Origin: Catajapyx aquilonaris
Lineage: Eukaryota
Direction of reading: 5' to 3'
Assembly: GCA_000934665.2 (NCBI GenBank)
Contig: JYFJ02003401.1
Span: forward strand, 1-42,320
DNA length: 42,320 bases
The translations under genes and the position numbers were made by a program. Shown here in pieces: positions 2,877 to 36,537 of this stretch. Each line of letters starts with the position of its first letter. Position 1 is the stretch's first letter. A model generated the notes under the pieces. That model was not told the origin of the DNA. It did not search any database and was given only the letters and a program-made list of their open reading frames with translations.

Positions 2877-3378
2877 AAGGCGAACATTTGAAACATTGAG
2901 ATAATTCGTTGGCGCTGGCCTTTTTTTTGTTTATCAGTCACTTACATATCGCTGTACGTGCTCATTACACTGGAGAAAACTAGGGTTACGGTTGTTATGG
3001 CTTTAATTTCAAATTCCAAATAAATACAATTTTCAGAGCCGATTTTAACATTCGGCGTACAAGCGTGGGTTCAGACACCTTTATTGCAGTGATTGTCGTA
3101 AGGCACCACGATCCCCCTCAAAGCACGCATTTAACGAACAGTACGTTGGGAAATGCACGAGAAACTAATAGTGGCCTTGAAAACAATGTAACTGATTGTT
3201 TCTAAAAACCAGATTAGTGACAACTTTTAACCGTACCATTCTTTGCCTGGTTACAACTCAACCATTCTTACATTTCAAATCCGTATAGATCAAATGAGCT
3301 TCGCTTCAAGAGCAAACTAATTACAGCCACCCATTACTTTTAAACCTTGATGAGGGCTGTACCTTTTTTTTTTTTGGT

Positions 3379-4962
3379 TCATGTGCAATGGGGAATTCTT
3401 AGTAGCCCGCCATTGGGTCTTGCAGAAATTAGAAGGATGCTGCTGGCAGCCCGGAACTGACTGAGGCCCTCCGAGCTCAGGTCCAAATTGTGGCACATGT
3501 TGAGCTGAAGGTACCGGAGGTTGCGGCATCTCCTCACCAGGTCAAGGAGCGAATCGTTGGTGACCTGGTTGCTTCTCATCAAGCGTAATTGAGTCAGAAG
3601 AGGGCAGTTTGCAGCAATGGCCGATATGCAACCGTTGCTCAGCTCAGTGCAATTAATAAAGCTGATCTTCTCGAGGCCACCAACGATGTTCGGCTGGGAG
3701 AAAAACCGCTTCAGAGATTGTACCATTCTGCCTCTGCACGTCTCCAGGGTCAAACTACGGAGGTTGCGCAGTCTCCCTATCCCGTCATGCAGGCCAGTGT
3801 TGGTCAAGACGGAACAGCCTAGGATATTCAGCTCCTCCAGCTGCAGGAAGTTTGCAAGGAGAAGGAAGGATTCCCGGTTGCGGAAGGAAGAGACAGTGAA
3901 CTTCCTCAGCCGGCTTCCCACACTGCAGGCCAGCACTTCCACTTCCTGGCCAGCACCGTTCATGTAGAGCACCACCTCAGTCAGATTCGGCCAGTTTCTC
4001 TCGGTGAACTCACTCGATGGCGGAGGGAAATCTTCACTACACAGGGTCATCTTTTCCAGCTCTTGGCAGGAACTAAAAATGTCCAGGGGATGTTTCCAGT
4101 AATTCTTGTGACTGTCGAACTCCATCCACACATAGATTTCCCGCAGTTCCCTGCACCTGTGTTATGAAAATAAAATGATGAACTGCCAATAAATGACACT
4201 CTGCTACACCCAGCCTCCTTTACTTACTCTTGTGCAATCAGTTCCAGCGTATCCTGCGACACTGAGGCAGCCACAATTTTGAGACGCTTGAGGTGAAGAA
4301 TGCTATGGGCTACTGCTTCCAGCAGCGAATCACCATCCTCTCTATCCCAATGCCTCAATTGAATTGACTCCAGATAGGCCCTGTTGCTCGTGATCATAGC
4401 CACCGATTCCGCTGCAGTTAAATGGCGGCCATCCAAGGTCGCCTTCTTCCTAAGACCCAGCCACTCCTTGGTTATCCTGTTCCAATCTTGGCACACCAGT
4501 GCGAGACCCTTGTAGATGGACTTGTCCTCCAAGTACGAAAACACCTTTGCCTTCATTTCGTCGGGCAGGTCCGCAAAGGTCTTGACGCTAGCCTGCAATC
4601 GACAATAAATTGCGTATGTAAACACATTTAAAGTACCGACATAATTAGCACTCACCGTTGATTCTACTTGACAATGTTGCTGGTTGCTGCCACTACTCGT
4701 CTTGCCCGCACAAGTCGGCTTCTTGTCTCGTAACTTGGAATCGACCGCTGATTTTCCCTGCACCTCCGAGACACCCAAACCGACAGCAATCTGAAACAAA
4801 AATCGACGGGTCGCAACTGTTAGAAGCACATATAATCATGTAGTCATGCAAATTAATGCGTGAGTACCGACAGTACTGGTGGGGTCACCCCAACGCCATA
4901 CAGACGACACCAACACAGACAAATTTTATTGTATTCTTTACCCTTCTTCATTGTTGTTGTTG

Positions 4963-5018
<56 letters not shown>

Positions 5019-5154
5019 TTTATTAATTTATTATTACCATCCCCCTGCCCACGCCCAGCCTCTTTCTCTTCGTGGCCCTCGTCTCCACGGTGTTCCAACC
5101 CTTCTCCTCAGCCTCCCTCGCCATCCTCTGCCTCTCCATTCCTCGAGTCTCCAT
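3379..5154 (-). CDS. F-box/LRR protein copy 1; exons 5154-5038, 4790-4656, 4592-4228, 4156-3379
   Basis: F-box LPDEMKAKVFSYL...LALVCQDW plus cysteine-containing LRRs (CPLLTQLRL, CRNLRYLQLNMC). Splice sites are phase-consistent; the exon-1 donor is inferred (ATG|gtaata). Confidence 0.85.
4951..5036. repeat. (TTG)n(TTA)n microsatellite inside the ancestral exon 1 of copy 1
   Basis: Seen directly; absent from paralogous exon 1 sequences. Confidence 0.95.
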
Positions 5155-5264
5155 CGTTCTCCCCTCAACAGAACAAACGTGTCGCAACAATCAACCGAGG
5201 GTTCGAACCGAGGCAACAAAGAAAAGGAATTTCATCAGAGGGACCCGACGAAATTTCGACCGTT

Positions 5265-5548
5265 TCCATTGTGGGCGGCCATATTGGAATCCAAAACAAC
5301 CTGTTGCCAGATTTCGTTCGTCCTTTCGATAACTAACGGAATCATTTTAACCCGACCAATAGTGCAATCGTACAAGTAATTTAATATAATTGCACATTGC
5401 ATGAATTAACTGTTGCTCGATTACTTTATTAGCAAGAAGAATGTGGTTGGCTGCGTCCGGATTTCTGGTGACGCACCCACCGGTTGCGTCCGAATAAACA
5501 GAGGGAACGGACCAGAAACGACGGTAGGAATGCGCCCAAGATGGCGCT
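5265..5548. promoter_or_regulatory. Conserved promoter cassette (copy 1)
   Basis: ccattgtgggcggccatatt ... gctgcgtccggatt..gtgacg..ggttgcgtccgaat..ggaacggacc..cgacgg..ggaatgcgcccaagatggcg; recurs upstream of most array genes. Confidence 0.75.
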
Positions 5549-6007
5549 GACCTTCATCGATCCAGGAAATTATGTGGCGATAATTAATAATTTCTGGCCA
5601 TAATTTGACCTATTTTGCTAATTTGGCAGTCGAGACGCCCAGTTAATATTGGTCAGCATAATATGAGTTACAAAGGAGAAGTCTCGGTGTTTAGGGACGC
5701 ACAACATGAGCCTTTGCACTTGACCATTCGTTTTATCAGCTAGTTACACCGTGCTGTTACATGCTCATTACATCACTTTAATTTCATTTCCAAGGGTACA
5801 TCTTCAATGCAAGCTACATGCGCATAAGGCGTACAAAATATTGCTGGTCACATGTGGATTCAGATACCACAGCGTATTGCAGCGATTGTCAATAAATAAA
5901 TATGGCACTGCAAAGCCCACTCAATGTAATGCAATATATTACAAGTTTAACACTGAAAAATTGTATGTTGGGGGAAAGTACAACATAAGAAATTGAGGAG
6001 GGAATTA

Positions 6008-7761
6008 CTAGGAATCAATGGCAGGTGCGTATATTTTAAGAGTGCTTCTCACGGCCTGGAACTGACCAAGGGCCTCAGCGCTCCGGTCCAACTTGCGGCA
6101 AGCGAAGAACTGAAGGTTCCGAAGATTGCGGCATCTCCTCACCAGGTCTAGGAGCGCATTGTTGGTGACCTTGTTGGTTTCCACCAAGCACAAATGAGTC
6201 AGAAGAGGGCAGTTCATGGCAATGGCCGATATGCAACCGTTGTCAAGAGTTAAGCAATGATGGATGCTGAGCTTCTCAAGGCCACGGACCACGTTTGGCT
6301 GGGAAAAAAACCTCTTCAGAGCTTGTGCCATGCAGGGGTGGAACCTAACCAGGGTCAAGCTACGGAGGTTGCGCAGACTCCCCATCCCGTCTTGCAGGTC
6401 AGCTTCAGTTAGGAAGACACAGCCTGGGATATCCAGCTCCTCCAGCTGCGGGAAGCATGCGATGAGACGAAAGGACTCCGAATTAACCATGGAAGAAATC
6501 GCCAGTTTCCTCAGCCAGCCTCCCACACTGCGGGCGAGCACTTCCACTTCCCTGTCAGATCTGGCTCCGAAAAGCGTTACATCAGTGAGTTTTGGCCAGT
6601 TTCTCGCGGCGATCTCTTTCGATGGCGGCGGGAACTTCCGATCATGTATGGTCATCGTTTCTAACTCTTGACAGGAACTTAAAATGTCCAGGGGATTCTT
6701 CGAGTAATTCTGGTACAAGCTGAAGTTTCTCAGGTAGATGTACCGCAATTTGCTGCACCTGTGTTGTAATAATGAACATAAGTAAATAACACTTCGCACA
6801 CACTATGTCAACCCTCCTTCACTTACCTTTGTGCGATCAGTTCCAGCATATTCTGTGACAGGGAGGCATCAGCAATACTGAGACTCTCAATATGGGAAAG
6901 TCTCTCGGCTACTACTGTCAGCAGCAAATTAGCTTTCGCTTTATTCCAGTGCGTGAAGGTAGCTGCCTTCAGACGGGTCCTGTTCCTCCTTATCATAATT
7001 ATTGATTCCTCCAGAGTCAAATGCTGGCCATCCAATGTGATGTTCCTCCTGAGACCTAGCCACTCCGTGGCAACCCTGCGCCAATCTTTGCACACCAGTG
7101 CGAGGCTCTTACGAAGCAATTTGTCCTGCAGGTACGAGAACACCTCCGCCATCATTTCGTCAGGCAGGCTGGCAAAAGTCTTGCTGCTAGCCTGCAATTA
7201 TCAACAAAATGCCTCAGCAGGATACAGGGAGTTTCCGAATTCAGCCGATAAACTTGTAGGGGTCATAGCCAAGACCAAGAGTTATTAGCTCTTGGGCAGC
7301 CCTGTTACCAAGGTAATTAGCTTCATGTCATCCCCCCACTCACCGTCGCTTCTACTTGACAAGGTTGCTGGTCTCCACTCGTCTCAGCTGCACGAGTCAC
7401 GCGAGACTGCTTCTTGTCACGAATCATGGAATCGGCCACCGATTCTCCTGGTGTCACCTTGATCTCCGATACACCACCACCAACCTGAAACAAAATCAAA
7501 GGGTTGCAACTGTAAGAAGCAGTCATGCAAAAAATTAATTGCAATTATACAGTACTGGTGCGGTCACCCCAAAGCCATACAGATGACACCAACAATAATT
7601 TCCATTTTATTTTTCACCTCTTTCCATGGCTTCTCCTCTTCCAGCCCCCTGCACAACTCGACCCTCCTTCTCTTCGTGGCCCTCGTCTCCACGGTGTTCC
7701 AACCCTTCTCTTCGGCCTCCCTCAGCATCCCCACTCTCCTCATCCTTCTGGTCTCCATCAT
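6008..7761 (-). CDS. F-box/LRR protein copy 2; exons 7761-7618, 7484-7344, 7191-6827, 6758-6008
   Basis: Same four-exon plan; F-box LPDEMMAEVFSYL..LALVCKDW; open LRR exon. Confidence 0.9.
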
Positions 7762-7925
7762 CCCGCTTCCTCCTTCCAACCTCCCTATCCCACCCTCTCC
7801 TGTGGGTCCAGAGAGACCTTCCTCTTCCAACAATGAAGCCGCAACCCAACAAAGACTGGCAACAATCAGGCCTAAATCCGAAAAAAAAAAAGGATAAAGC
7901 GAAAGTTACAAACGAACTTCCAACG

Positions 7926-8220
7926 TTCCATTGCTGGCGGCCATCTTGGATTCGCTCAACATACACCGTTGCCAGATTTCTCATCTCGAACTACAACCGG
8001 CCCCTCGATTAAACCGGACAATTAGCACAATCACGCAAGTTATTTGATACAATTGCATTTTTTTGGGTGTATCGCATATTAACGGTTGCTCGCTACTTTT
8101 ATCAGCAAAATTTAAGAATATTGTCGGATGCGTCCGGATTTGTTTTGTGGTTGCGTCTAAATTTATGTAACGTAAGGAACGGACCTAAGGCGACGGCCAG
8201 AACGCACCCAAGATGGCGCT
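7926..8220. promoter_or_regulatory. Conserved promoter cassette (copy 2)
   Basis: ggcggccatctt ... gcgtccggatt ... ggaacggacc ... gaacgcacccaagatggcg. Confidence 0.75.
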
Positions 8221-9137
8221 GATTTTTTTGTGCAATCCCAATTAAATAATTTGCGATTTAATAATGTCTTGGCCCTAACTTGAGCTCCTAGAGGGCATCT
8301 GACAAGCTGAGCACTAAGTTGATATTGGTAGCCATAATATGAGTTACGAAGGAGTCTCAGTAATTATGGAAGTGCAATTAGCCTTTTGAATGTGATGTAC
8401 ATGCTCATTACATGATGGAAGACGGAAGTATCACTTTATTTTCATTTCCAAGTGTACATTTTCAATGAAGCAAACTGTGGATTCGGCATACAAAATATGT
8501 GGATTCAGCCTTATCGCAGTGATTGTCAATAAGGCACTGCAATCCTGCAAAGTAATTGCAATCATGAGTTTAACGCAAGACATACACAACGTAATACTGG
8601 CCATGAAAACAATATAACAACCGATCGTGTCAATCGCAGCATAGTTTATCTGGAAAAAAACTAAGGCGTTCCAGATTTCCCTTCTTTTTGTGGGCAGGAA
8701 ATTCGTAGGGTATGACCACAACATATGCAAGTGGCCCTTGAACAAGACTTCAACACTCTTGTATCAGCCAGTTACTGTGCTGTATGTGCTCATTACATCA
8801 TGGAACAACCCAGACACTGTTGTATCACTTTCATTTCATTTACAAGGGTACATTTTCAATGCGGCCAAATATGCATTCGGTATGCAAAATATTGCTGGTC
8901 TTTCAACATGTGGATTCAGATACCACACCTTATCGCAGTGATTGTCAATAAACAATTAAATATGGCACAGTAATACCTCTCAAAGTAATGATATTACAAG
9001 TTTAACACAATGAAAAATTGTATGTTGGGGCAAAGTACCACATAAGAAATTGAGGAGGTGCGGTGGCCGAGATGGTAACGTATTTCAAAACCTTGATGAA
9101 GCTCACAGTTTTTTTGTTCCTTCCCAGTAGGGAATTC

Positions 9138-10860
9138 CTAGGGTGCAACGGCAGGTGCATCAATTTGGAGCGTGCTTCTCACGGCCTGGAACTGACCAAG
9201 GGCCTCAGTGCTCAGGTCCAACCTGTGGCAAGAGAAGAGACCAAGGTTCCGGAGATTGCGGCATCTCCTCACCAGGTCTAGGAGCGCGTCGTTGGTGACC
9301 TCGTGGGTTTCCACCAAGCATAAATCAGTCAGGAGGGGGCAGTTCAAGGCAATGGCCGATATGCAACTGTTGTCAAGAGTTGGGCAATGACAGATGCTGA
9401 GCTTCTCAAGGCCACGGACCACGTTCGGCTTGGAAAAAAACCTCTTCAGAGCTTGCGCCATGCAGGACTGGAAGATAATCAGGGTCAAGCGGCGGAGGTG
9501 ACGCAGTCTCCCGATCCCGTCTTGCAGGCCAGCTTCAGTTAGGAAGAAACAGCATAGGATTTCCAGCTGCTCCAGCTGAGGGAAGCATGCAATGAGATGG
9601 AAGGACTCCGAATTAACCATGGAATAAATCGTGAGTTTCCTCAGCCAGCCTCCCACGCTCTGGGCGAGCACTTCCACTTCCCTGTCAGCGTTGGCTCCAA
9701 AAAGCTTTACATCAGTGAGTTTTGGCCAGTTTCTCGCGGTGATCTCTTTCGATGGTGGAGGGAATTGCCGATCATTTATGGTTATCGTTTCGAGTTCTTT
9801 ACAGGAACTTAAAATGTCCAGGGGATTCTTCGAGTAGTTCTGGTACAAGCAGAAGTTTCTCAGGGAGATGACCCGCAATTTGCCGCACCTGTGTTGTAAG
9901 AATGAATATTTAAGTAGATAACACTTAGCACACACTATATCGACCCTCCTTCACTTACCTTTGTGCAATCAGTTCCAGCATATTCTGTGACAGGGAGGCT
10001 TTGAAAACACTGAGACTCTCAATATGAGAAAGTCTCTCGGCTACTACTTTCAGCAGCAAATTAGCTTTCGCTTTATTCCAGTGCCTGAAGATCACCCCTT
10101 TCAGACGGGTCCTGTTCCTCCTTATCATGATTACTGATTCCTCCAGAGTCAAATGCTGGCCATCCAATGTGATGTTCCTCCTGACACCAAGCCACTCCGT
10201 GGCAACCCTGCGCCAGTCTTTGCACACCAGTGTGAGGCTCTTACGAAGCGATTTGTCCTGCAGGTACGAGAATACCTCCGCCATCATTTCGTCAGGCAGG
10301 CTGGCAAAAGTCTTGCTGCTAGCCTGCAATTATCAACAAAATGCCTAAGCAGGATACAGGGAGTTTCTGAATTCAGCCGACAAACTTGTAGGGGTAATAA
10401 CCAAGACCAAGAGTTATTAGCTCTTGGGCAGCCCTCATCCCCCCACTCACCGTCGCTTCTACTTGACAACGTTGCTGGTCTCCACTCGTCTCAGCTGCAC
10501 GAGTCACGCGAGACTGCTTCTTGTCACGAATCATGGAATCGGCCACCGATTTTCCTGGTGTCACCTTGATCTCCGAGACACCACCACCAACCTGAAACAA
10601 AATCAAAGGGTTGCAACTGTAAGAAGCAGTCATGCAAAAAATTAATTGCAATTGTTCTTTACACCCCAAAGCCATACATATGACACCAACAAGAATTTTG
10701 GATTTCATTTTTTCACCTCTTTCCATGGCTTCTCCTCGTCCATCCCCCTGCACAACTCGACCCTCCTTCTCTTCGTGGCCCTCGTCTCCACAGTGTTCCA
10801 ACCCTTCTCTTCGGCCTCCCTCAGCATCCCCAGTCTCCTCGTCCTTCTGGTCTCCATCAT
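9138..10860 (-). CDS. F-box/LRR protein copy 3 (recent duplicate of copy 2); exons 10860-10717, 10591-10451, 10323-9959, 9888-9138
   Basis: Introns and flanks nearly identical to copy 2; all exons open and phase-consistent. Confidence 0.9.
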
Positions 10861-11022
10861 CCCGCTTCTTCCTTCCAACCTCCCAATCCCACCCTCCTGT
10901 GGGTCCAGAGAGACCTTCCTCCTCCAACAATCAAGCCGCAACCCAACAAAGGCTGGCAACAATCAATCTAAATCCGAAAAAGAAAAAAGGATAAGCAAAA
11001 GTTACAAACGAAATTCCAACGT

Positions 11023-11310
11023 TCCATTGCCGGCGGCCATCTTGGATTCGCTCAACATACACTGTTGCCAGATTTCTCAGCTCGAACTATAACCGGCCCC
11101 CGATTAAACCCGACAATTAGTAAAATCACGCAAATTATTTGATACAGTTGAATTATTGTACATTACAAATATTAACGGTTGCTCGTTACTTTAATTAGCA
11201 AAATTGAATATTGTCGGATGCGTCCGGATTTGTTTTGTGGTTGCGTCTAAATAGATGTAACATAAGGAACGGACCTAAAGCGACGGCCAGAACGCACCCA
11301 AGATGGCGCT
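11023..11310. promoter_or_regulatory. Conserved promoter cassette (copy 3)
   Basis: Same motif order as 7926-8220. Confidence 0.75.
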
Positions 11311-11814
11311 GTTTTTTTTTTGTGCAATCCCAATAAATTATTTGCGATTTAATAATGTCTGGCCCTAACTTGCGCTCCTGGAGGGCATCTGACAAGCTGA
11401 ACACTAAGTTGATATTGGTAGCCATAATATGAGTTACCCAAGAAGGAGTCTCGGTAATTATGGAAGTGCAATTAGCCTTTGAATCTGTGATGTATACATG
11501 CTCATTACATGAAGTATCACTTTATTTTCATTTCCAAGTGTACATTTTCAATGCAGCAAATATGCGGATTTGGCCTACAAAATAGGGCTAGTCTTTCAAC
11601 ATGTAGATTCTGCATCTTATGACAATGATTGTCAATTAAATAAGGCACTGCAATCCCGCAAAGTATTGCAATCACAAGTTTAACGCAAGACATACACAAT
11701 GTAATACTGGCCATGAAAACAATATAACAACCGATCGTGTCAATCGCAGCATTCTTTATCTCGAAAAAAACTAAGGCGTTCCAGATTTCACTTTTTTTTG
11801 TGGGATGGAAATTC

Positions 11815-13996
11815 TTAGGATATGACGTTGTAACTGCGGGTGATACGCCCAACTCGTGGCTTGAAGCGGGGTTCTGCAGAAATTTGGAGGGTGCTGCTCG
11901 CTGCCTGGAACTGATCCAGGGCCTCTGCGCTCCTGTCCAGCTTGCGGCACCAGTTGAGCTCGAGGTACCGCAGGTTGTGGCATCTCCTCACCAGGTCAAG
12001 GAGCGAATCGTTGGTGACCTCTTGGCATTCCTCCAGTGAAAAGTGAGTCAGAAGAGGGCAGTTCGCAGAAATGGCCGATACACAATTGTCGTCCACTGTT
12101 GAGCAACCATACAAACGGAGCCTCTCAAGGCTACCCATGACATTTGGCTTAGAGAAAAAGCTCTGCAGACCTTGTGCGGTGCAACTTAGTGCAGTGCAGT
12201 AGTGGAACTTTACCAGGGTAAGGCTACGGAGGTTGTGCAGTCTCCCGATCCCATCGTGCAGCCCAGTGTCAGTCAAGTAGAAACAGGATCGGATTTTCAG
12301 CTCCTCCAGCTGCGGGAAGTGTGCGAGGAGAAGGAAGGACTCCCGGTTGATGAAGGAATCGATGCTGAGCTTCTTCAGCTGCCTCCCAAGAGTGCAGGCC
12401 AACAATTCTACTTCCCTGTCAGCAGCGAGAAATGATGCATCGACGAGTTTCGGCCAGTTTTCCCCAGTGCCCTGGGGTGATGGTGGAGGCAAACCTTGTC
12501 CATAAATGGTCATCTTTTCTAGCTCTTGGCAGGAACTCAAAATGTCTAGGGGATGCTTTGAGTAATGCTGACACCAGCGGAAGTTTCTTAGGTAGATTTC
12601 CTGCAGTTCGCTGCACCTGTGTCATAAAAATAAAAGTAATGACACTTAACGCACCATATCGACCTTCCTTTACTTACTCATGCGCAATCAGTTCCAGCAT
12701 GTTCTGTGACACTGAGGTATCCCAAACACAGAGACGCTTCAGGTGAGGAAGATTATTGGCTACTACTTTCAGCAGCGAATCAGCATCCTCTCCATTCCAG
12801 TCCATCAACGTAACCGACTTCAAATGGGTCCTGTAGCTCACGATCGCATGCACCGATTCCTCCAGAGTCAAACCCCGGTGGTCCAACTGCATGTTCTTCC
12901 TAAGACCCAGCCACTCCTTGGCCACATTGCACCAATCCTTGCACACCAGTGCGACTGTACAGAGCGATTTCACATCCAGGTACGAGAACACTTTTGCCTT
13001 CATCTCATCAGGCAGGCCGGCAAAGGTCTTGACGCTAGCCTGTAATTGTCAGCAAATTGGTTCAGTGTGTAGATATACAGGGTGATTAGTTAAACAACAA
13101 AAAAGTTTGATCACCCTGTATACGTATATATGAACAATCACCATTTTTAAGTACAGGTATTGAGTACGTTGCTAAACTCAGCGGCTGTCAGGCTCGCTGA
13201 TAGGTCAATCTTCACTGAGGGCCGTTTTCTCGAACAGTGGTTCAAATGTAAACCCGGTTCAAAGCCGGTTTAAACCCTTGACAACAGCCTAACAACAATC
13301 AAATCAGGGATTAAACTGGCTTTGAACCCGGTTTACATTTGAACCACTGTTCGAGAAAACGGCCCTGAATTCAACAACGTTTTCGCTGCCTAGTTCTGCT
13401 ATTCCAAGATGGCCACCATTTGCCGGCGCCCTACGCGAAAGCCGCTTCGCCTAGCAACCCGTGTTGAATGAACCAACAACGATGCGCTCAACCGCTTCCG
13501 TCGCTGTGGCAGCGGCCGAGTTTAGCAACGTACTCATTGCGAGTCTCAGCAGTCCAGTAACCTGAAATAATTAGCTTCTTGTGATCCCACACTCACCGTT
13601 GTATCTACTTCACAATGCGGTTTGCTGCCTCCACTGGACTGGGCGGCGGGAGTCACACGAGCCCGCTTCTTGTCATGACCCTTGGAATAGGCCATTGCTT
13701 TTCCTGGCGTCTTCACCTGCACCTCGGACACACCCAACCCGCCAGCAATCTGAAACAAAATCAAAGTGTAACAAATGCAGCCATGTAAAATAGTAACAAT
13801 GGTTCCGGGCAAAAGTAGTTGTGCGGTCACTCAAAGGCCATACAGATGACATATTATTTTTCACCTTTTTCCATGGCTTCCCCTGACCCCGGAACAACTC
13901 GACCCTCTTCCTCTTCATGGCCCTCGTCTCCACCGTGTTCCAGCTCTTCTCCTCAGCCTCCCTCAGCCTCCTCATCCTCCTTGTCTCAATCATCAT
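11815..13996 (-). CDS. F-box/LRR protein copy 4; exons 13996-13865, 13749-13597, 13039-12678, 12616-11815
   Basis: F-box LPDEMKAKVFSYL..VALVCKDW; LRR exon open; intron 2 enlarged by MITEs. Confidence 0.9.
13078..13118. mobile_element. 41-bp Tc1/mariner-type mini element
   Basis: TA|cagggtgat ... atcaccctg|TA. Confidence 0.7.
13162..13535. mobile_element. MITE with 3-bp TSD (ATT), PIF/Harbinger-like
   Basis: TIRs gagtacgttgctaaactc / gagtttagcaacgtactc; ATT on both sides; empty site ggtattgtgagtctc in the paralogous intron at ~16575. Confidence 0.9.
13219..13365. mobile_element. Nested Harbinger-type MITE
   Basis: Long TIRs gggccgttttctcgaacagtggttcaaatgtaaac / gtttacatttgaaccactgttcgagaaaacggccc; TSD TGA. 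Confidence 0.9.
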
Positions 13997-15380: not shown

Positions 15381-16880
15381 CTACGCTACAGGGTTCAGCT
15401 TGTTGCCCCCGATCAGCTCAAGGTCCAGGAAGTTGCGCCACACCCTCACCAGGTCTCGGAGCGGGCGATTGATGACCAGGTGGCTATTCACCAGGCAAAA
15501 ACAAGTCAGGAGAGGACAGTTCATGGCAATGGCTGATATGCAACCATCATCCAGTGTTAACCCCCAAGAAAGCCGGAGCTTCTCGAGGCTGCCGACCACG
15601 TTTCGCTTGGAGAAAAACCTCTGCAAACCTTGTGGCGAGCAGTGGGAGATGCATTTCAGGGTCAAGCTACGGAGGTTGTGCAGTCTCCCAATCCCGTCTT
15701 GCAGGCCAGCATCAGTTAAGTGGATGCAGGAGTCGATTTCCAGCTCTTCCAGCTGAGGGAAGTGTGTGAGGAGAAGGAAGGACTGCGGATTACTGAAGAA
15801 TACAACCGTCAGTTTCCTCAGCTGGCTCCCCAGAGTATGGGCAAGCACCTCCACTTCCCTATCAGCGTCGTCTATGAGAAGTGACACGTCGGTGAGTTTC
15901 GACCAATCTCGCCCGGTGACCTTGTTCAATGGCGGAGGGAAACTTCTACCACGTATGGGGGGATGTATGGTTATCTTTTCTAGCTCTCGGCAGATACTCA
16001 AAATGTCCAGGGGATGCCTCCAGTAATGCCGATTCCAGGTAAAATTGCTTAGGTCAATTTCCCGAAGTTCGGTGCACCTGAGGTGTAAAATTAAAAGTCA
16101 TGAACTGACAATAAATGACACTGAACGCACCATATCAACCCTCCTTTACTTACTCTTGTGCAATCAGTTCCAGCGTCTTCTGTGACACCAACATATCAGA
16201 AACACTGAGACACTTCAGGTGAGGAAGACTCTGGGCTACTACTTTTAGCAGAGAATTAGCATAATATCCATTCCAATGCCTCAAGTTAATCGACTTCAGA
16301 TATGTCATGTTGCTAGTGATCGTAACCACAGATTCCTCCCGAGTGAAGTGCCGGCCGTCCAAGGTCATCTTCTTCCTAATGCCCAGCCACTCCTTGGCCA
16401 CCTTGAACCAATCTTTGCACACCAGCGTGCTCCTGTAGAAGGATTTCTTGTCCAGGTACGAAAACACCTTTGCCTTAATCTCATCAGGCAGGCTGGAAAA
16501 GGTCCTGCTGCTAGTCTGCAATTAACAAGAATTATGTAAAGTAGTATACAGTTGACACTATGGACAATGATCAGGTATTGTGAGTCTCTGCAGCCCAGTT
16601 AGCTCATTGTCATCCCCCACTCACAGTCGCTTCTACTTGACAATGTTGCCGGTTGCTGCCTGCCTTCTTTTTTCACCTTCCTCCGTGGCTTCTCCTCCAT
16701 CCCCCTGCCCATGTCCAGCCTCTTCCTCTGGTTGCTGCCTGCCTTGTTTTCCACGTTCCTCCTTGGCTTCTCCTCCACCCTCTTCCTCTTCGTGGCCCTC
16801 GTCTCCACGGTGTTCCAACCCTTCTCCTCAGCCTCCCTCCGCATCTTCATCCTCCTGGTTTCTACCCTGGTCTCCATCAT
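15381..16880 (-). CDS. F-box/LRR protein copy 5 (exon 2 mostly deleted, C-terminal frameshift); exons 16880-16677, 16515-16154, 16077-15381
   Basis: F-box LPDEIKAKVFSYL. A +2-nt shift near 15390 replaces the conserved E.LGQFQAA tail with a stop. The exon-2 remnant (16625-16660) is fused behind the exon-1 donor. Confidence 0.75.
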
Positions 16881-18303: not shown

Positions 18304-19717
18304 TCACGGAAACTTGGTAATTTCGAGCATGCTGTTGGCCGCCTGGAACTGACGCAGGCCCTCTAAGCTCAGGTCCAGCTTGTCACACCAGATGAACAGA
18401 AGGGGCCGGAGGTTGCGGCATCTCCTCACCAGGTCTAGGAGCGGGCCGTTGGTGACCAGGGGGCAATTCATCAGGCTAAAACAAGTCAGGAGAGGGCAGT
18501 TCCTGGCAATGGCTGATATGCAACCATCATCCAGTGCTGACCAACAAGAAAGGCTGAGCTTCTCCAGGCTACCCACAACGTTGGGCTTGGAGAAAAACCT
18601 TTGCAGACCTTGTGGAGTGCAGTCGCGGAAATAGTTCAGGGTCAAGCTACGGAGGTTGTGCAGTCTCCCAATCCCGTCTTCCAGGCCAGCATCAGCTAAG
18701 TAGCAGCAGGATTGGAATCCCAGCTCCTCCAGCTGAGGGAAGCATGCGAGGAGAAGGAAGGACTCCGGATTGGTGAAGTAAGTGACAGTGAGTTTCCTCA
18801 GACGGTCCCCCACGCTGAGGGCAAGCACTTCCATGCCCCTGTCAGCACTGCCCATCAGAAGCGATACATCAGCGAGTTTTGGCCAGTTTCTCCCGGTGAC
18901 CTTGTTTGATGGCGGAGGGAGATGTTCATCATCATCATATATGGTTATCTTTTCCAGCTCTCGGCAGGAACTCAATATGTCCAGGGGATGCCTCGAGTAA
19001 TCATCACACCGTTTGAAACTCCTTAGGTAGATTTCCTGTAGTTCGCTGCACCTGTGTCGTAAAAATAAAAGTAATGAACTGACGGTAACTGACACTTCAT
19101 GCACCATATCGACCCTCCTTTAGGCTACTTACTCTCGTGCAATCAGTTCCAGCATCTTCTGTGGCACTGACGTATTAAAAATAACGAGACGCTTCAGGTG
19201 AGGAAGACTCTCGCCTACTAGTTGCAGCAGTGAATCAGCCTTCACTCCACCCCAATCACGCAAGGCAATTGACTTCAGATGCGTCTTGTTGCTAGTGATC
19301 GTAACCACAGATTCCTCCAGAGTCAAACGCCACCTGCTCAAGACCATCTTCTTCCTAAGACCCAGCCAATCCTTGGCCACCTTGAACCAATCCTTGCACA
19401 CCAGCGTGCTCCTGTAGAGGGATTCCCAGTCCAGGTACGAGAACACCTTTGCCTTCATCTCATCAGGCAGGCTGGAAAAGGTCCTGCTGCTAGTCTGGAA
19501 TAATTATCAGGTAAGTATGCAAATAGTAGTATACAATCGACACTGACAAATTTGTGTAGTATATTTGATTCGTCACCTTTCTCCGTGGCTCGTCTTCCAT
19601 CCCCCTGCACAACTCGACCCTCCTTCTCTTCGCGGCCCTGGTCTCCACTGTGTTCCAACCCTTCTCTTCAGCTTCATCCATCACCCTCAGTCTCTTCATC
19701 CTTCTGGTCTCCATCAT
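18304..19717 (-). CDS. F-box/LRR protein copy 6 (three exons; exon 2 absent); exons 19717-19577, 19494-19133, 19051-18304
   Basis: Phase-0 exon-1 donor joins exon 3 across an 82-bp intron; all exons open. Confidence 0.88.
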
Positions 19718-30638: not shown

Positions 30639-32406
30639 TTACCAAAACATGGAATACCAGCCAGTGATGGGAAATAGAGAAATTCGGAGCTTGTCACTGG
30701 CCGCCTGCAACTGACGCAGGGCCACCGCTCTCCCGTCCACCCTGCCGCACCAGTTGAGCTCAAGGTGCTGGAGGTTGTGGCACCTCCTCACCAGGTCTAG
30801 GAGCGAGGCGTTGCGGACCTTTTGGTTTCTCACCAAGCAGAAATGAGTCAGGAGAGGGCAGTTCATGGCAATGGCTGAGATGCAACCATTGTCCAGGGTT
30901 TGGCAATAAGAAAGGCTGAGCTTCTCCAGGCGGCCAACTATGTTTGGCTTGGAGAAAAAGCTCTTCAGAGGTTGTGCCATGCACCAGCGAAACTTTGCCA
31001 GGGTCAGGCTACGGAGGTTGTGCAGTCTTCCGATCCCATCCTGAAGGTGAGTGTCAGTCAAGATGGTACAGTCTTGGATATTCAGCTCCTCCAGCAGTGG
31101 GAAGCGTGCGAGGAGAAGGAAGGACTCCGGGTTGACGAAGCAATTAAACTTCAGCTTACTCAGCCGGCCCCCCACACTGCAGGCCAAAACTTCTACTTCC
31201 TTGTCAGCATTGTCCATGAGAAGCGACACGCTGGTGAGATTCGGCCAATTTTGCCCAGTGAACTCGCTTGATGGCGGAGGGAAACTTCCAGCACCTATGG
31301 TTATCTCTTCTAGCTCCTGGCAGGAACTCAAAATGTCCAAGGGATGCTTTGAATAAACGTCTTTCCAGTTGAACATACTCAGGCAGATGCTCCTCAGTGC
31401 ACTGCACCTGGGTCGTAAAAATAGAAGTAAGGAACTGGCCATAAACGACACTTAACTTGCCTCCTTTACTTACTCCTGTGCGATCAGTTCCAGCATATTC
31501 TGCGCCACATTGGTATCCTGAACACTGAGATGCTTCAGGTGAGGAAGCTTCTCCGCTACTACCTCCAGCAGCGAATCAACCTTCACTCTCTTCCAGTCCA
31601 TAAGAGTAAGTGACTCCAGATGGGTCATGTTGTCCACGATCACCTGCACTGATTCCTCCAGAGTCAGAAGGTGGGCATCCAAGACCATCTTCTTCCTGAG
31701 ACCCATCCACTCCTTGGCCACCCTGCACCAATCTTTGCATACCAGTGTGAGGGTCATATGGATGGTTTTATCATCCAGGTACGAGAACACCTTTGCCTTC
31801 ATCTCATCGGGCAGGCTGACAAATGTCTTGAAGCTATCCTGCAATTGTCAGGAAAATGCTTAAGTATGTAAACAAGTAATGATCACTTTAAGTGCCGGTA
31901 ATGTGAGTCTCTGCAGCCCAGTCACTAGATAATTAGCTTCATGTCATCCCGCACTCACCGTCGCTTCTACTTGACAATCTTGTTTGCCGTCTCCCTTCGT
32001 CTCGGCTGCATAAGCCAAGGAGGATTCCTTCTCGTCACGAATCATGGAATCGGCCGCTGATTGTCCTGGTGTCTTGGCCTCCACCTCCGAGGCACCCAAC
32101 CCACCAGCAATCTGAAACAAAATTAGTGTAAAAGATGGTCGCACATGTAATCATGCGGTCCCGTAAAAATTAATGTGGCAGTTCCATGCAAAATTATTGG
32201 CTGATGGTCACCACTGGTGCGGTCACCCAAAAGCCATGCAGATGACACAAACTAAAACTTTGATTTAATTTCACCTTTCCCCGTGGCTCCTCTTTTTCTT
32301 CCTCCACCCCCCTGCCCATGTCCACCCTCCTTCTCTTCATGCCCCTCGTCTCCACAGTCTTCCTTCCCTTCTCCTCGGCCTCCCTCGGCGTCCTTCTAGT
32401 CTCCAT
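30639..32406 (-). CDS. F-box/LRR protein copy 9; exons 32406-32275, 32111-31959, 31838-31474, 31407-30639
   Basis: All exons open and phase-consistent; F-box LPDEMKAKVFSYL..LTLVCKDW. Confidence 0.9.
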
Positions 32407-34195: not shown

Positions 34196-36537
34196 TACAT
34201 CGGCATGAAAATTATGGCTATGGTCTAAGGTTATAGCAGGGGAACGCAGGCTCAAAATTTTTCGGGATGCATAAACTGTTTCCTGCAGCAGCCGGTGGCC
34301 AGACCGGGAACCTCCCACAAACCACCCCCTCAGGAGGGCTACGTCACCGCGTGCAATCACTCCGGTAGCATGCGCGCAGGCTTCTACCAGCATAGAGGTC
34401 CAGGCGGCCAACTTTGTTTGGCTTGGAGAACAAGCTCCTCAGAGGTTGTAACATGCACCAGCGAAACTTTGCCAGGGTCAGGCTACGGAGGTTGTGCAGT
34501 CTTCCGATCCCATTCTGAAGGTGAGTGTCAGTCAAGATGGTACAGTCTTGGATATTCAGCTCCTCCAGCAGTGGGAAGCGTGCGAGGAGAAGGAAGGACT
34601 TCGGGTTGACGAAGCAATTAAACGTCAGCTTACTCAGCCGCCTCCCCACGCTGCGGGCCAAAACTTCTACTTCCTTGTCAGCATTGTCCATGAGAAGCGA
34701 CACGCTGGTGAGATTCGGCCAGTTTTGCCTAGTGAACTTGCTTGATGGCGGAGGGAAACTTCCAACACCTATGGTTATCTCTTCTAGCTCCTGGCAGGAA
34801 CTCAAAATGTCCAAGGGATGCTTTGAGTAAACGTCTTTCCAGTTGAACATACTCAGGCAGATGCTCCTCAGTGCACTGCACCTGTGTCGTAAAAATAAAA
34901 GTAATGAACTGGCCATAAGTGACACTTAACTTGCCTCCTTTACTTACTCCTGTACGATCAGTTCCAGCATATTCTGTGCCACATTGGTATCCTGAACACT
35001 GAGACGCTTCAGGTGAGGAAGCTTCTCCGCTACTACCTCCAGCAGCGAATCAACCTTCGCTCTCTGCCAGTCCGTCAGAGTAAGTGACTCCAGATGGGTC
35101 ATGTTGTCCACGATCACCTGCACTGATTCCTCCAGAGTCAGAAGGTGGGCATCCAAGACCATCTTCTTCCTGAGACCCAGCCACTCCTTGGCCACCCTGG
35201 ACCAATCTTGGCAAACCAGTGTGGTCATATGGATGGTTTCCTCCTCCAGGTACGAGAACACCTTTGCCTTCATCTCATCGGGCAGGTTGGCAAATGTCTT
35301 GGCGCTAGCCTGCAATTGTCAAGAAAATGCTCAAGTATGCAAACAAGTATTGCATAAGCCCTGATCATTTTAAGTACATGTGTCGTGCGTCTCTGCTGCC
35401 CAATTACCGAGATAATTAGCTCATCGTCATCCTGCACTCACTGTTGCTTCTCCTTTACAATGTTGGCTGCTATCTCCATTCGCCTTGGCTGCAAGCGACA
35501 CACAAAACTGCTTCTCGTCACTGATCTTGGCATCGGCCACTGATTTTCCCGCCATCTGCGCCTGCACCCCCGAGACACCCATGCCACCAGCAATCTGAAA
35601 CAAAATGAAACCGTAACAAACCAAACTCAGGATTGCATCTGCACATACACAAAACAAGTGACAACAAAGGACCACTTTATCATGTATTAATTTAAATTAA
35701 CCCATAGTTTAAGCAATTATTACTTTTTCTCATTGAAAAAAAGGCTCATGGAACGGCCCTGTCCATCTGTGTGTGGACAGGTATCAGGGCCTGAACAGCA
35801 TAAGATAGCGACAAACATTTTTTGGATTCAGCTGACCCTAAATTAGGTTTCATGGACAACATCCTGTGCCCGGCCACATCCGATTTTACTGAGCCCACTC
35901 CATCCACCAAGGTCAAGTCTACATGCTTTAGGCCAGTATCTTCGACGTCTCATGCAAACCTTGCGACGGCCCCGGGTCCGCCCTAGCTAGCTCATACCAA
36001 GCAAACTCGGGGTTCCTGGAGCACTGGTTTTTATTGACCTTCTGGGTCCCAAGCTGCTTGAGTACAGACTGGCCCTTGTTAGGTCTCCCCTCCATCGGAG
36101 CCCCCGCAAGCGGCTATCAGCGATTATGTCACCCTGGAATCAACTGACCTGGCATGGCAGAGAGGAATCTTATGGCCTCGCTCTGGACATTTGACCCCAG
36201 GCATGGGTGGCACTTTAAGTTAACCGCCCCCGCCTACGTGGCCAAATCCGGCGTACAGCCCATTGACACCTTGCCTGCCCACCTTGCGGTCCTCAAAACC
36301 AGGACAACGACGCTGCCGAATTGGCACGCCAAAATAAACCTCGGCTGCTCCATCAACCGACACCACGTCTTGAACCCCAGTAGTAGTTAATTTTGTTACT
36401 TAAAAATGTGATACTCTCCCTGGCAGAACCCTGTCAACTCCCTTCTGCGAGCGCCTCCCGCAGGTTTGCGAGAGATGAAGATTACGGCCTTAGAGGTTGC
36501 TGGGCAACGAGAAATGAGGCTGACAACACTCTACGTC

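Follow-up and report, generated by a model that had tools for sequence, protein, structure and literature searches.

Sister F-box/LRR genes that differ along a repeat-periodic stripe

We analyzed a 42,320-nucleotide stretch of the Catajapyx aquilonaris genome (contig JYFJ02003401.1, positions 1 to 42,320; hereafter, the window), which carries a tandem array of genes that each combine an F-box with leucine-rich repeats (LRRs). Two neighboring members, copies 2 and 3, encode proteins whose differences fall largely on positions that recur from one repeat to the next. The data support diversifying selection on this periodic recognition stripe; the support is moderate from the pair alone and becomes strong when the rest of the family is included. 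The hot stripe comprises the C-terminal half of each strand and the following loop, rather than the whole strand. A sequence-only reading of positions 6008 to 10323 had attributed the differences between the two copies to diversifying selection on substrate specificity at the concave LRR surface, with an arms race against foreign or selfish proteins as a possible setting; selection on an LRR recognition surface is supported, both by ratios of nonsynonymous to synonymous change (dN/dS, ω) above 1 and by clustering, but the hot zone differs from the one described.

The minus-strand gene model of copy 2 consists of exons 7427-7344 (from the first in-frame ATG), 7191-6827, and 6758-6008, and that of copy 3 of exons 10534-10451, 10323-9959, and 9888-9138. 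Both frames are intact, with 399 codons each from the first in-frame ATG and no indels between them. The interval of the earlier reading agrees with these models, as 6008 is the last base of the copy 2 stop codon and 10323 the first base of the copy 3 F-box exon. The component features are as follows (contig joints are those of run X5, treated under transcription below; pLDDT, predicted local distance difference test).

6008..6758, minus strand: last exon of copy 2, with LRR repeats 3-12 and the stop codon (6008-6010); open frame with the conserved CAG acceptor; LRR solenoid in the predicted fold (pLDDT 88.8)
6759..6826, minus strand: intron of copy 2 between the F-box and LRR exons; 68 bases, GT..AG, phase 2; spliced joint in an X5 contig
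6827..7191, minus strand: F-box exon of copy 2, with the F-box at about 7066-7176 and LRR repeats 0-2; PF12937 match; X5 joint 7190>7343
7344..7484, minus strand: upstream coding exon of copy 2; first in-frame ATG at 7427; frame open back to an acceptor at 7485/7484
9138..9888, minus strand: last exon of copy 3, with LRR repeats 3-12 and the stop codon; X5 contig joint 9886>9957, 70 bases skipped
9959..10323, minus strand: F-box exon of copy 3, with the F-box and LRR repeats 0-2; protein 90% identical to that of the copy 2 exon
10451..10534, minus strand: upstream coding exon of copy 3, counted from the first in-frame ATG

Over 2645 aligned columns, the DNA identity of copies 2 and 3 is 88.9%. 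Their sister relationship, as proposed earlier, was supported at a bootstrap value of 100 by the tree of the whole gene and by all three trees of separate segments. All of the peptide strings quoted in the sequence-only reading (11/11 strand pairs and 3/3 strings described as helical) are present as written in both conceptual proteins, which differ at 64/399 residues. Along the duplicated unit, divergence was counted in the upstream intergenic DNA (77/978), the 5' region (8/162), the first coding exon (1/84), the F-box exon (24/365), intron 1 (5/127 plus a 25-base indel), intron 2 (6/68), and the LRR exon (86/751). Divergence is greatest in the LRR exon (11.5%, versus 96/1335, or 7.2%, for non-coding DNA), with 200-base windows at 9.5-13.5% versus 6-11% in intergenic DNA. 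To call the introns nearly identical, as had been done, was an overstatement in view of these counts, although neither reaches the divergence of the LRR exon. At synonymous sites, too, this exon (27/173 sites; 13/94 at four-fold sites) is more diverged than non-coding DNA (p = 0.002 versus intergenic DNA; p = 0.026 for four-fold sites). Candidate causes of this excess are multi-nucleotide mutation, CpG effects, and conversion from unseen paralogues.

The 5' block of the unit (7000-7600 and 10130-10700), which includes the putative 5' region, the first coding exon, intron 1, and the F-box, is 3.4-4.2% diverged versus 6-11% for intergenic DNA. The low value could stem from a more recent conversion tract or from a promoter and F-box under constraint. 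Family members elsewhere in the genome may also have acted as conversion donors and so contributed either to the synonymous excess or to the low 5' divergence.

Replacements cluster by repeat position

The LRR region was divided into 13 repeats, with the register set by repeat lengths counted from the C terminus; x positions were defined as positions 2, 3, 5, 7, and 8 of each repeat (LxxLxLxx). As the sequence-only reading had noted, replacements concentrate at x positions, where 25/65 residues differ between copies 2 and 3 versus 36/262 at other LRR positions (Fisher p = 2.3e-5). When the first repeat is shifted by three residues to the strand predicted in the exon-2 fold, the counts are 24/65 versus 36/259 (p = 6e-5). 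With positions 10-11 added to the x set, 38/90 residues differ versus 23/237 elsewhere (p = 2e-10). By position, the number of differing sites out of 13 is 0 at position 1, 1 at position 2, 6 at position 3, 3 at position 4, 6 at position 5, 2 at position 6, 7 at position 7, 5 at position 8, 1 at position 9, and 9 at position 10, followed by 4/12 at position 11. Few differences occur at positions 12 and beyond, on the helix side (17/185), or at scaffold positions 1, 4, 6, and 9 (6/52). Thus, the strands are indeed enriched for changes at their x positions, but they are not the sole place of change, since loop positions 10-11 differ at 13/25 residues. Of the outward-facing strand residues (positions 3, 5, and 7), 18/39 differ. 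Comparison with other copies was possible for 63 differing codons, of which 21 were assigned to copy 2 and 15 to copy 3, with 27 left unpolarized; changes thus lie on both lineages.

Selection within the pair and across the family

By Nei-Gojobori counting, copies 2 and 3 have a whole-gene dN of 0.085, a dS of 0.148, and an ω of 0.57 (0.63 for the LRR exon alone). Divided by class, ω is 1.41 at x positions and 2.93 at positions 10-11, versus 0.29 at scaffold positions (1, 4, 6, and 9), 0.26 at positions 12 and beyond, and 0.27 at all positions outside x and 10-11. Pairwise likelihood analysis used a GY94-type model with F3x4 frequencies, a synonymous rate common to all classes, and likelihood ratio tests against ω = 1. 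The estimates were 1.99 for the x set (p = 0.011) versus 0.43 elsewhere, 1.89 for the x set in the corrected register (p = 0.019), 2.12 for the x set with positions 10-11 (p = 0.002), and 2.51 for the outward-facing positions 3, 5, and 7 (p = 0.003). Both approaches therefore returned the dN/dS above 1 at strand x positions that the sequence-only reading had called for. Relative to non-coding divergence, non-synonymous change at x positions is elevated with an odds ratio of 3.4 (p = 4e-7). With every multi-hit codon treated as a single event, the x set with positions 10-11 changes 1.70 times as fast as synonymous sites (p = 0.024); against non-coding DNA, the event-counted x set and the x set with 10-11 show a 2.3- to 2.5-fold excess (p = 4e-4 and 2.5e-6).

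Family-level work covered the copies within the window, with the tail of copy 5 masked in tree analyses. Among the more distant copies, pairwise dS is 0.26-0.64, which is unsaturated, and dN(x)/dS is 0.70-1.5. A fixed-partition model on an eight-copy tree gave an ω of 1.28 for the x set (p = 0.007) and 1.49 for the x set with positions 10-11 (p = 2e-6). Estimated separately for each repeat position in the eight copies, ω is 0.05 at position 1, 0.42 at 2, 0.79 at 3, 0.40 at 4, 1.28 at 5, 0.49 at 6, 2.75 at 7, 2.12 at 8, 0.77 at 9, 2.94 at 10, and 1.48 at 11. At positions 7, 8, and 10 (ω of 2.1-2.9), twice the log-likelihood difference (2Δl) from ω = 1 is 25-49. Values at positions 12-26 are 0.21-0.88, and the F-box region has an ω of 0.44, a pattern of purifying selection on the putative docking domain with ω above 1 in the putative substrate-binding domain.

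The same positions emerge when the sister pair is set aside. With copies 2 and 3 masked, ω is 2.46, 2.03, 3.20, and 1.57 at positions 7, 8, 10, and 11, respectively. In a cross-validation, the set of positions 7, 8, 10, and 11, chosen without copies 2 and 3, gave an ω of 2.56 in the pair (p = 6e-4), with 25/51 residues differing. A site mixture comparison of the M1a versus M2a type (our own implementation) was significant, with a 2Δl of 59.7 and 20% of sites at an ω of 2.58. Eighteen sites had a naive posterior above 0.9, distributed as seven at position 7, four at position 10, two at position 12, and one each at positions 3, 8, 9, 11, and 18. Most of these high-posterior sites lie at positions 7, 8, 10, or 11 (13/18), and the same number (13/18) differ between copies 2 and 3.

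Location of the hot stripe

In the predicted folds, DSSP strands span positions 3-7 of each repeat from 1 to 11, except that they end at position 6 in repeats 6 and 7; helices start at about position 14, and positions 8-13 form the strand-to-helix loop. Positions 3, 5, and 7 would point outward onto the strand sheet because positions 4 and 6 are the conserved hydrophobic residues inside the strand. The strand sheet is described as the LRR solenoid's concave side (PMC3138743). The placement of the differences on this face in the earlier reading suits the pair, in which positions 3, 5, and 7 are strongly hit, but the family-wide peak falls on the C-terminal strand end together with the residues that open the loop. 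Similarly, the hot zone is clustered on LRR strands and loops as expected but is shifted along the repeat: family-wide, positions 2 and 3 lie below 1, and the hot positions are 7, 8, 10, and 11. Judged from the predicted strands and the alternation rule, this family-wide peak would lie on one rim of the concave face rather than at its center.

Protein architecture and identity

The middle exon of copy 2 matches the Pfam F-box-like family PF12937 (E = 4.2e-9; 36.5 bits versus a cutoff of 24.3) and also PF00646 (24.1 bits versus a cutoff of 20.5), and the F-box core residues are invariant in nine copies. A profile of eight LRR exons compared with solved chains retrieved FBXL2 (9e-21) and FBXL17 (4e-16), as well as MAX2/D3, RAD7, FBXL5, and TIR1; an F-box-exon profile retrieved FBXL17 (1e-5) and F-box/WD proteins. 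AlphaFold predicted the LRR exon with a pLDDT of 88.8 and a predicted template modeling score (pTM) of 0.87, and the F-box exon with a pLDDT of 83.0, each repeat containing one strand and one helix. The top Foldseek matches were Skp2 (chain 8byl_B, TM score of 0.68), COI1, D3/MAX2, FBXL2, TIR1, and FBXL17. An LRR solenoid thus lies directly C-terminal to the F-box, with similarity to solved FBXLs in both sequence and predicted fold. Repeat lengths are 23-29 residues, and Cys occupies position 9 in only some repeats (e.g., 7, 9, and 11), as judged by inspection. By architecture, copies 2 and 3 are predicted FBXL-type substrate receptors of the SCF (SKP1-CUL1-RBX1) ubiquitin ligase.

No orthologue of a named FBXL (1-22) was found by word-indexed search, by profile search, or in the Protein Atlas. 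The word-indexed protein search with the copy 2 LRR exon returned 769 candidates, none with an E value of ≤0.001. An exhaustive profile search of 1.84 billion representatives returned 10496 matches at an E value of ≤0.001, nearly all of which were generic multi-stretch LRR matches. Two of five sequences inspected (P0018 and P0098) have the same architecture; both are unnamed, transcriptome-derived proteins, of 386 and 397 residues. Neighbors in the Protein Atlas were generic FBXL/LRR clusters only, and Pfam scans of four open reading frames yielded only F-box and weak LRR matches.

Transcription of copies 2 and 3

In contigs of run X5, from a second study, joints coincide precisely with predicted introns of copies 1-4 (copy 1, 4154>4226 and 4591>4655; copy 2, 6756>6825 and 7190>7343; copy 3, 9886>9957; copy 4, 12614>12676). 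All of these joints read CT..AC on the plus strand, which corresponds to GT..AG on the gene strand, and none of the intron joints of copies 1-4 is present in DNA run X1. The kind of X5 is unrecorded and no run is recorded as RNA; we read X5 as transcript-derived because its contigs, which give no expression levels, skip introns. Joints at the predicted introns in X5 and their absence from X1 thus indicate that copies 1-4 are transcribed and spliced as modeled. Within copies 2 and 3, the run contigs revealed no polymorphism usable for a McDonald-Kreitman test.

A candidate further upstream coding exon of copy 2 begins with an ATG at 7761 and stays open to 7618, where a GT donor follows; its phase matches that of the exon starting at 7484. 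The peptide of this candidate exon (7618-7761) is recognizably conserved upstream of copies 3, 4, 5, and 6, and copies 1 and 11 lack a counterpart of the in-frame ATG at 7427. For copy 1, the X5 contig extends 9 letters further, upstream of 4791. Among the joints listed, there was no read joint for the intron after the candidate exon. Judging from the DNA, the proteins may be about 68 residues longer than modeled, with a true start further upstream.

Some contig joints within 3300-13400 connect different copies, namely, X5 12616 to 9961, X5 13040 to 7646, and X1 7470 to 10578 (76 shared letters). These are most likely assembly chimeras at words common to paralogues, with trans-copy transcripts as the alternative.

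Adaptive divergence and competing explanations

We consider it reasonably likely that copies 2 and 3 are young tandem FBXL-type duplicates in which a constrained scaffold carries a periodic stripe that is diverging adaptively, as a diversification of substrate specificity. Both would derive from one FBXL-type gene whose N-terminal F-box docks on SKP1 in the SCF ligase, while a solenoid of about 12 repeats holds the substrate and the stripe serves as the substrate-binding site. After duplication, purifying selection would have maintained the F-box in both copies, along with the helices and the hydrophobic scaffold of the repeats. In both copies, too, replacements would have outpaced silent change in a repeat-periodic stripe made up of the outward-facing strand residues at 3, 5, and 7, then position 8 and, beyond the conserved position 9, loop residues 10 and 11. 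The most likely cause would be selection for different or changing binding partners, i.e., a diversification of substrate specificity within an adaptor repertoire.

A number of points weigh against this reading. Family-wide, the x set as a whole reaches an ω of only 1.28, and many distant pairs have a dN(x)/dS of 0.8-1.2, the range expected without any constraint. The signal from the pair is only moderate, with the Nei-Gojobori count of the x set against all synonymous sites giving a p value of 0.054. If each multi-hit codon is taken as one event, the x-set ratio becomes 1.55 (p = 0.09). Two or three base changes are carried by 15/64 replaced codons, and part of the ω excess could be mutational because multi-nucleotide mutations inflate ω in standard codon models. 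The codon models were our own implementations rather than PAML or HyPhy, with branch lengths fixed (and kappa fixed as well for the per-position ω) or scaled (for the site mixture) but not fully re-optimized. Synonymous divergence in the LRR exon is approximately twice that of non-coding DNA, which makes the choice of neutral yardstick matter. Placement on the concave face depends on DSSP strands of a model and on the alternation rule, and the screen for conversion donors covered in-window copies only. The event-based ratio, the multi-hit codons, the modest x-set value, and the pairs with ratios near 1 would all suit relaxed constraint, in which a functionless surface stripe drifts neutrally and an apparent ω above 1 is produced by multi-nucleotide mutations together with misfit of the models and small numbers. 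We nonetheless regard relaxation alone as unlikely. Positions 7, 8, and 10 exceed ω = 1 by a wide likelihood difference and do so similarly with copies 2 and 3 masked, and the set of positions chosen without the pair retains an ω of 2.56 within it. Counted as events, changes at positions 2, 3, 5, 7, 8, 10, and 11 still exceed both synonymous (1.7-fold) and non-coding (2.5-fold) divergence. The M2a-type model is preferred to M1a, which already includes a neutral class. Finally, the changes in copy 10, a probable pseudogene, are spread rather than clustered. Copy 10 and copy 8 form a second young pair (dS of 0.035 and dN of 0.047), in which replacements are spread with no excess at x positions; it gives a helpful contrast, within the array, to the pattern of copies 2 and 3.

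A mosaic produced by gene conversion seems less probable still, whether as tracts from distant family members or as conversion between copies 2 and 3 that homogenized everything except the strands. Such a history would fit the tight clusters of differences with several multi-hit codons, the synonymous divergence of the LRR exon above that of non-coding DNA, and the low divergence of the 5' block (7600-7000). However, a recombination screen found no conversion tracts from seven in-window copies in copies 2 and 3: none of 14 run tests (seven copies in two directions, over 110 differing exon bases) was significant, with a smallest p value of 0.065. The residues of copies 2 and 3 at hot positions are mostly absent from other copies (27/63 being unpolarizable), and the scaffold codons between changed codons are intact, whereas tracts from copies 55-60% identical would have altered them. 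Three gene segments gave no supported conflicting topology. Synonymous divergence does not differ significantly between strand and helix segments (positions 1-8 versus 9 onward, p = 0.33); thus, the helices have been kept by protein-level selection rather than by recent copying. The array does contain broken members (the truncated copy 10, copy 5 with its degenerate end, and three fragments), in line with the possibility that one or both of copies 2 and 3 are non-functional and that the pattern is one of early pseudogenization. We find such decay very hard to credit given two frames intact over 399 codons without an indel, intact splice sites, spliced contigs for both copies, and an ω of 0.27-0.44 outside the stripe.

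Relation to known systems

F-box adaptors choose which proteins a cell destroys, and F-box families whose binding surfaces diversify are generally supposed to keep pace with shifting targets, such as proteins of pathogens or selfish elements. Like FBXL2, FBXL17, and SKP2/FBXL1, the genes described here have an F-box followed directly by an LRR solenoid, whose repeats may correspond to the approximately 26-residue, Cys-containing type; by analogy with these FBXLs, the proteins would be expected to dock on SKP1 and to capture substrates through the LRR domain. Canonical FBXLs are generally single-copy and conserved. The present genes, in contrast, form a tandem, fast-evolving array with an overall ω of about 0.6.

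The well-described cases of diversifying adaptors are nematode FTH/FBA and plant F-box genes, and Thomas in 2006 reportedly found a pattern of adaptive evolution in C. elegans F-box paralogues. For C. elegans F-box paralogues and wild isolates, tandem expansion is described together with an F-box under purifying selection and a positively selected recognition domain (PMC8120010), and the plant FBX superfamily is a second case of such F-box evolution (PMC3030570). The Catajapyx genes share with these families a tandem, lineage-specific expansion, a constrained F-box, and a diversifying recognition domain. Recognition domains in the nematode families are mainly FTH and FBA, as reported in PMC8120010, while those found here are LRRs with strict repeat periodicity, and they come from a non-nematode animal host. 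No homology was found between the LRR recognition domain and the nematode FTH/FBA or MATH domains; the resemblance is one of mode of evolution, not of descent.

A further parallel is provided by the GALA F-box/Cys-containing LRR (CC-LRR) effectors of Ralstonia solanacearum, in which positive selection is described at repeat-periodic positions on the helix, or convex, side (PMC2244805). Both systems combine an F-box with LRRs under repeat-periodic positive selection as detected by codon models. They differ in that the sites described here lie at the strand end and in the strand-to-helix loop, with a helix ω of 0.2-0.9, and in that GALAs are injected bacterial effectors, whereas these are host genes with introns. 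Hypervariable xxLxLxx residues also occur in plant R proteins, receptor kinases, and lamprey variable lymphocyte receptors (VLRs). As in such immune LRR receptors, variation is concentrated on solvent-exposed strand and turn residues. Unlike them, the array proteins are without a signal peptide or an NB-ARC, TIR, or kinase module (Pfam, four open reading frames), and their expected output would be ubiquitylation rather than signaling. The peak also takes in positions 10-11, outside the classical five x positions.

Within the library and terms covered, our literature search retrieved selection studies of nematode, plant, mammal, and bacterial F-box proteins but no positively selected FBXL array from an arthropod or other non-nematode invertebrate. 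The mode of evolution is known from nematodes and plants, and no new principle is involved. The family instead adds an FBXL-type case in another animal lineage, with a periodicity clean enough for the putative binding stripe to be read from sequence. Because the sister pair is young, intact, and transcribed, it offers a minimal system in which exchange of 25-38 stripe residues should exchange partners, making the idea of an adaptor arms race directly testable in a new lineage. We raise only tentatively, as an unlikely option, that the array is a germline repertoire of SCF receptors for intracellular surveillance, in which each copy would use a different hypervariable stripe, formed by the strand ends and loops of about 12 repeats, to capture fast-changing foreign or selfish proteins for ubiquitylation. 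If so, the targets would be proteins of viruses, intracellular parasites, transposons, or drive elements, and the array would represent immune-like recognition outside nematodes and plants, on an FBXL rather than an NLR or TLR scaffold.

The tandem array and neighboring features

Translated searches with the two large open frames of copy 2 as queries identified nine minus-strand units, each combining an F-box portion with an LRR portion, at approximately 3.4-4.6, 6.0-7.2, 9.1-10.3, 11.9-13.0, 15.4-16.5, 18.3-19.5, 30.7-31.8, 34.4-35.3, and 38.9-40.1 kb. Three fragments of such units lie at 21.6-21.8, 29.2-30.2, and 33.3-33.7 kb. Nine units and three fragments on a single strand within 42 kb constitute a tandem expansion. 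The exon structure is common to all units, with GTAAGT donors, CAG acceptors, and GT..AG introns kept in 9/9; the intron separating the F-box exon from the LRR exon is 61-81 bases long across units. The members other than copies 2 and 3 are as follows.

3382..4592, minus strand: copy 1; F-box exon 4230-4592 and LRR exon 3382-4155; intact; spliced X5 contig of 1130 bases
11818..13039, minus strand: copy 4; intact; X5 joint 12614>12676
15384..16515, minus strand: copy 5; C-terminal end of the LRR exon shortened and degenerate
18307..19494, minus strand: copy 6; intact; sister of copy 5
30642..31838, minus strand: copy 8; intact
34347..35309, minus strand: copy 10; probable pseudogene closely related to copy 8, with an LRR exon that breaks off after about 176 residues
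38913..40114, minus strand: copy 11; intact

The LRR exon of copy 5 (15384-16076) stops about 30 residues early, and several otherwise invariant Cys and Leu residues in its last repeats are replaced; this copy may be decaying despite its open frame. Between copies 1 and 2, at about 4940-5030, is a long trinucleotide microsatellite at which reads were cut; in open frames it translates to runs of Y, I, or L. The plus strand, opposite to the array genes, carries at the array's edge an open frame (1297-1488) that encodes a THAP zinc-finger domain (Pfam PF05485, E = 9.7e-9) and may be transposon-derived. Beside it is a long purine-rich, low-complexity open frame at 628-1532.

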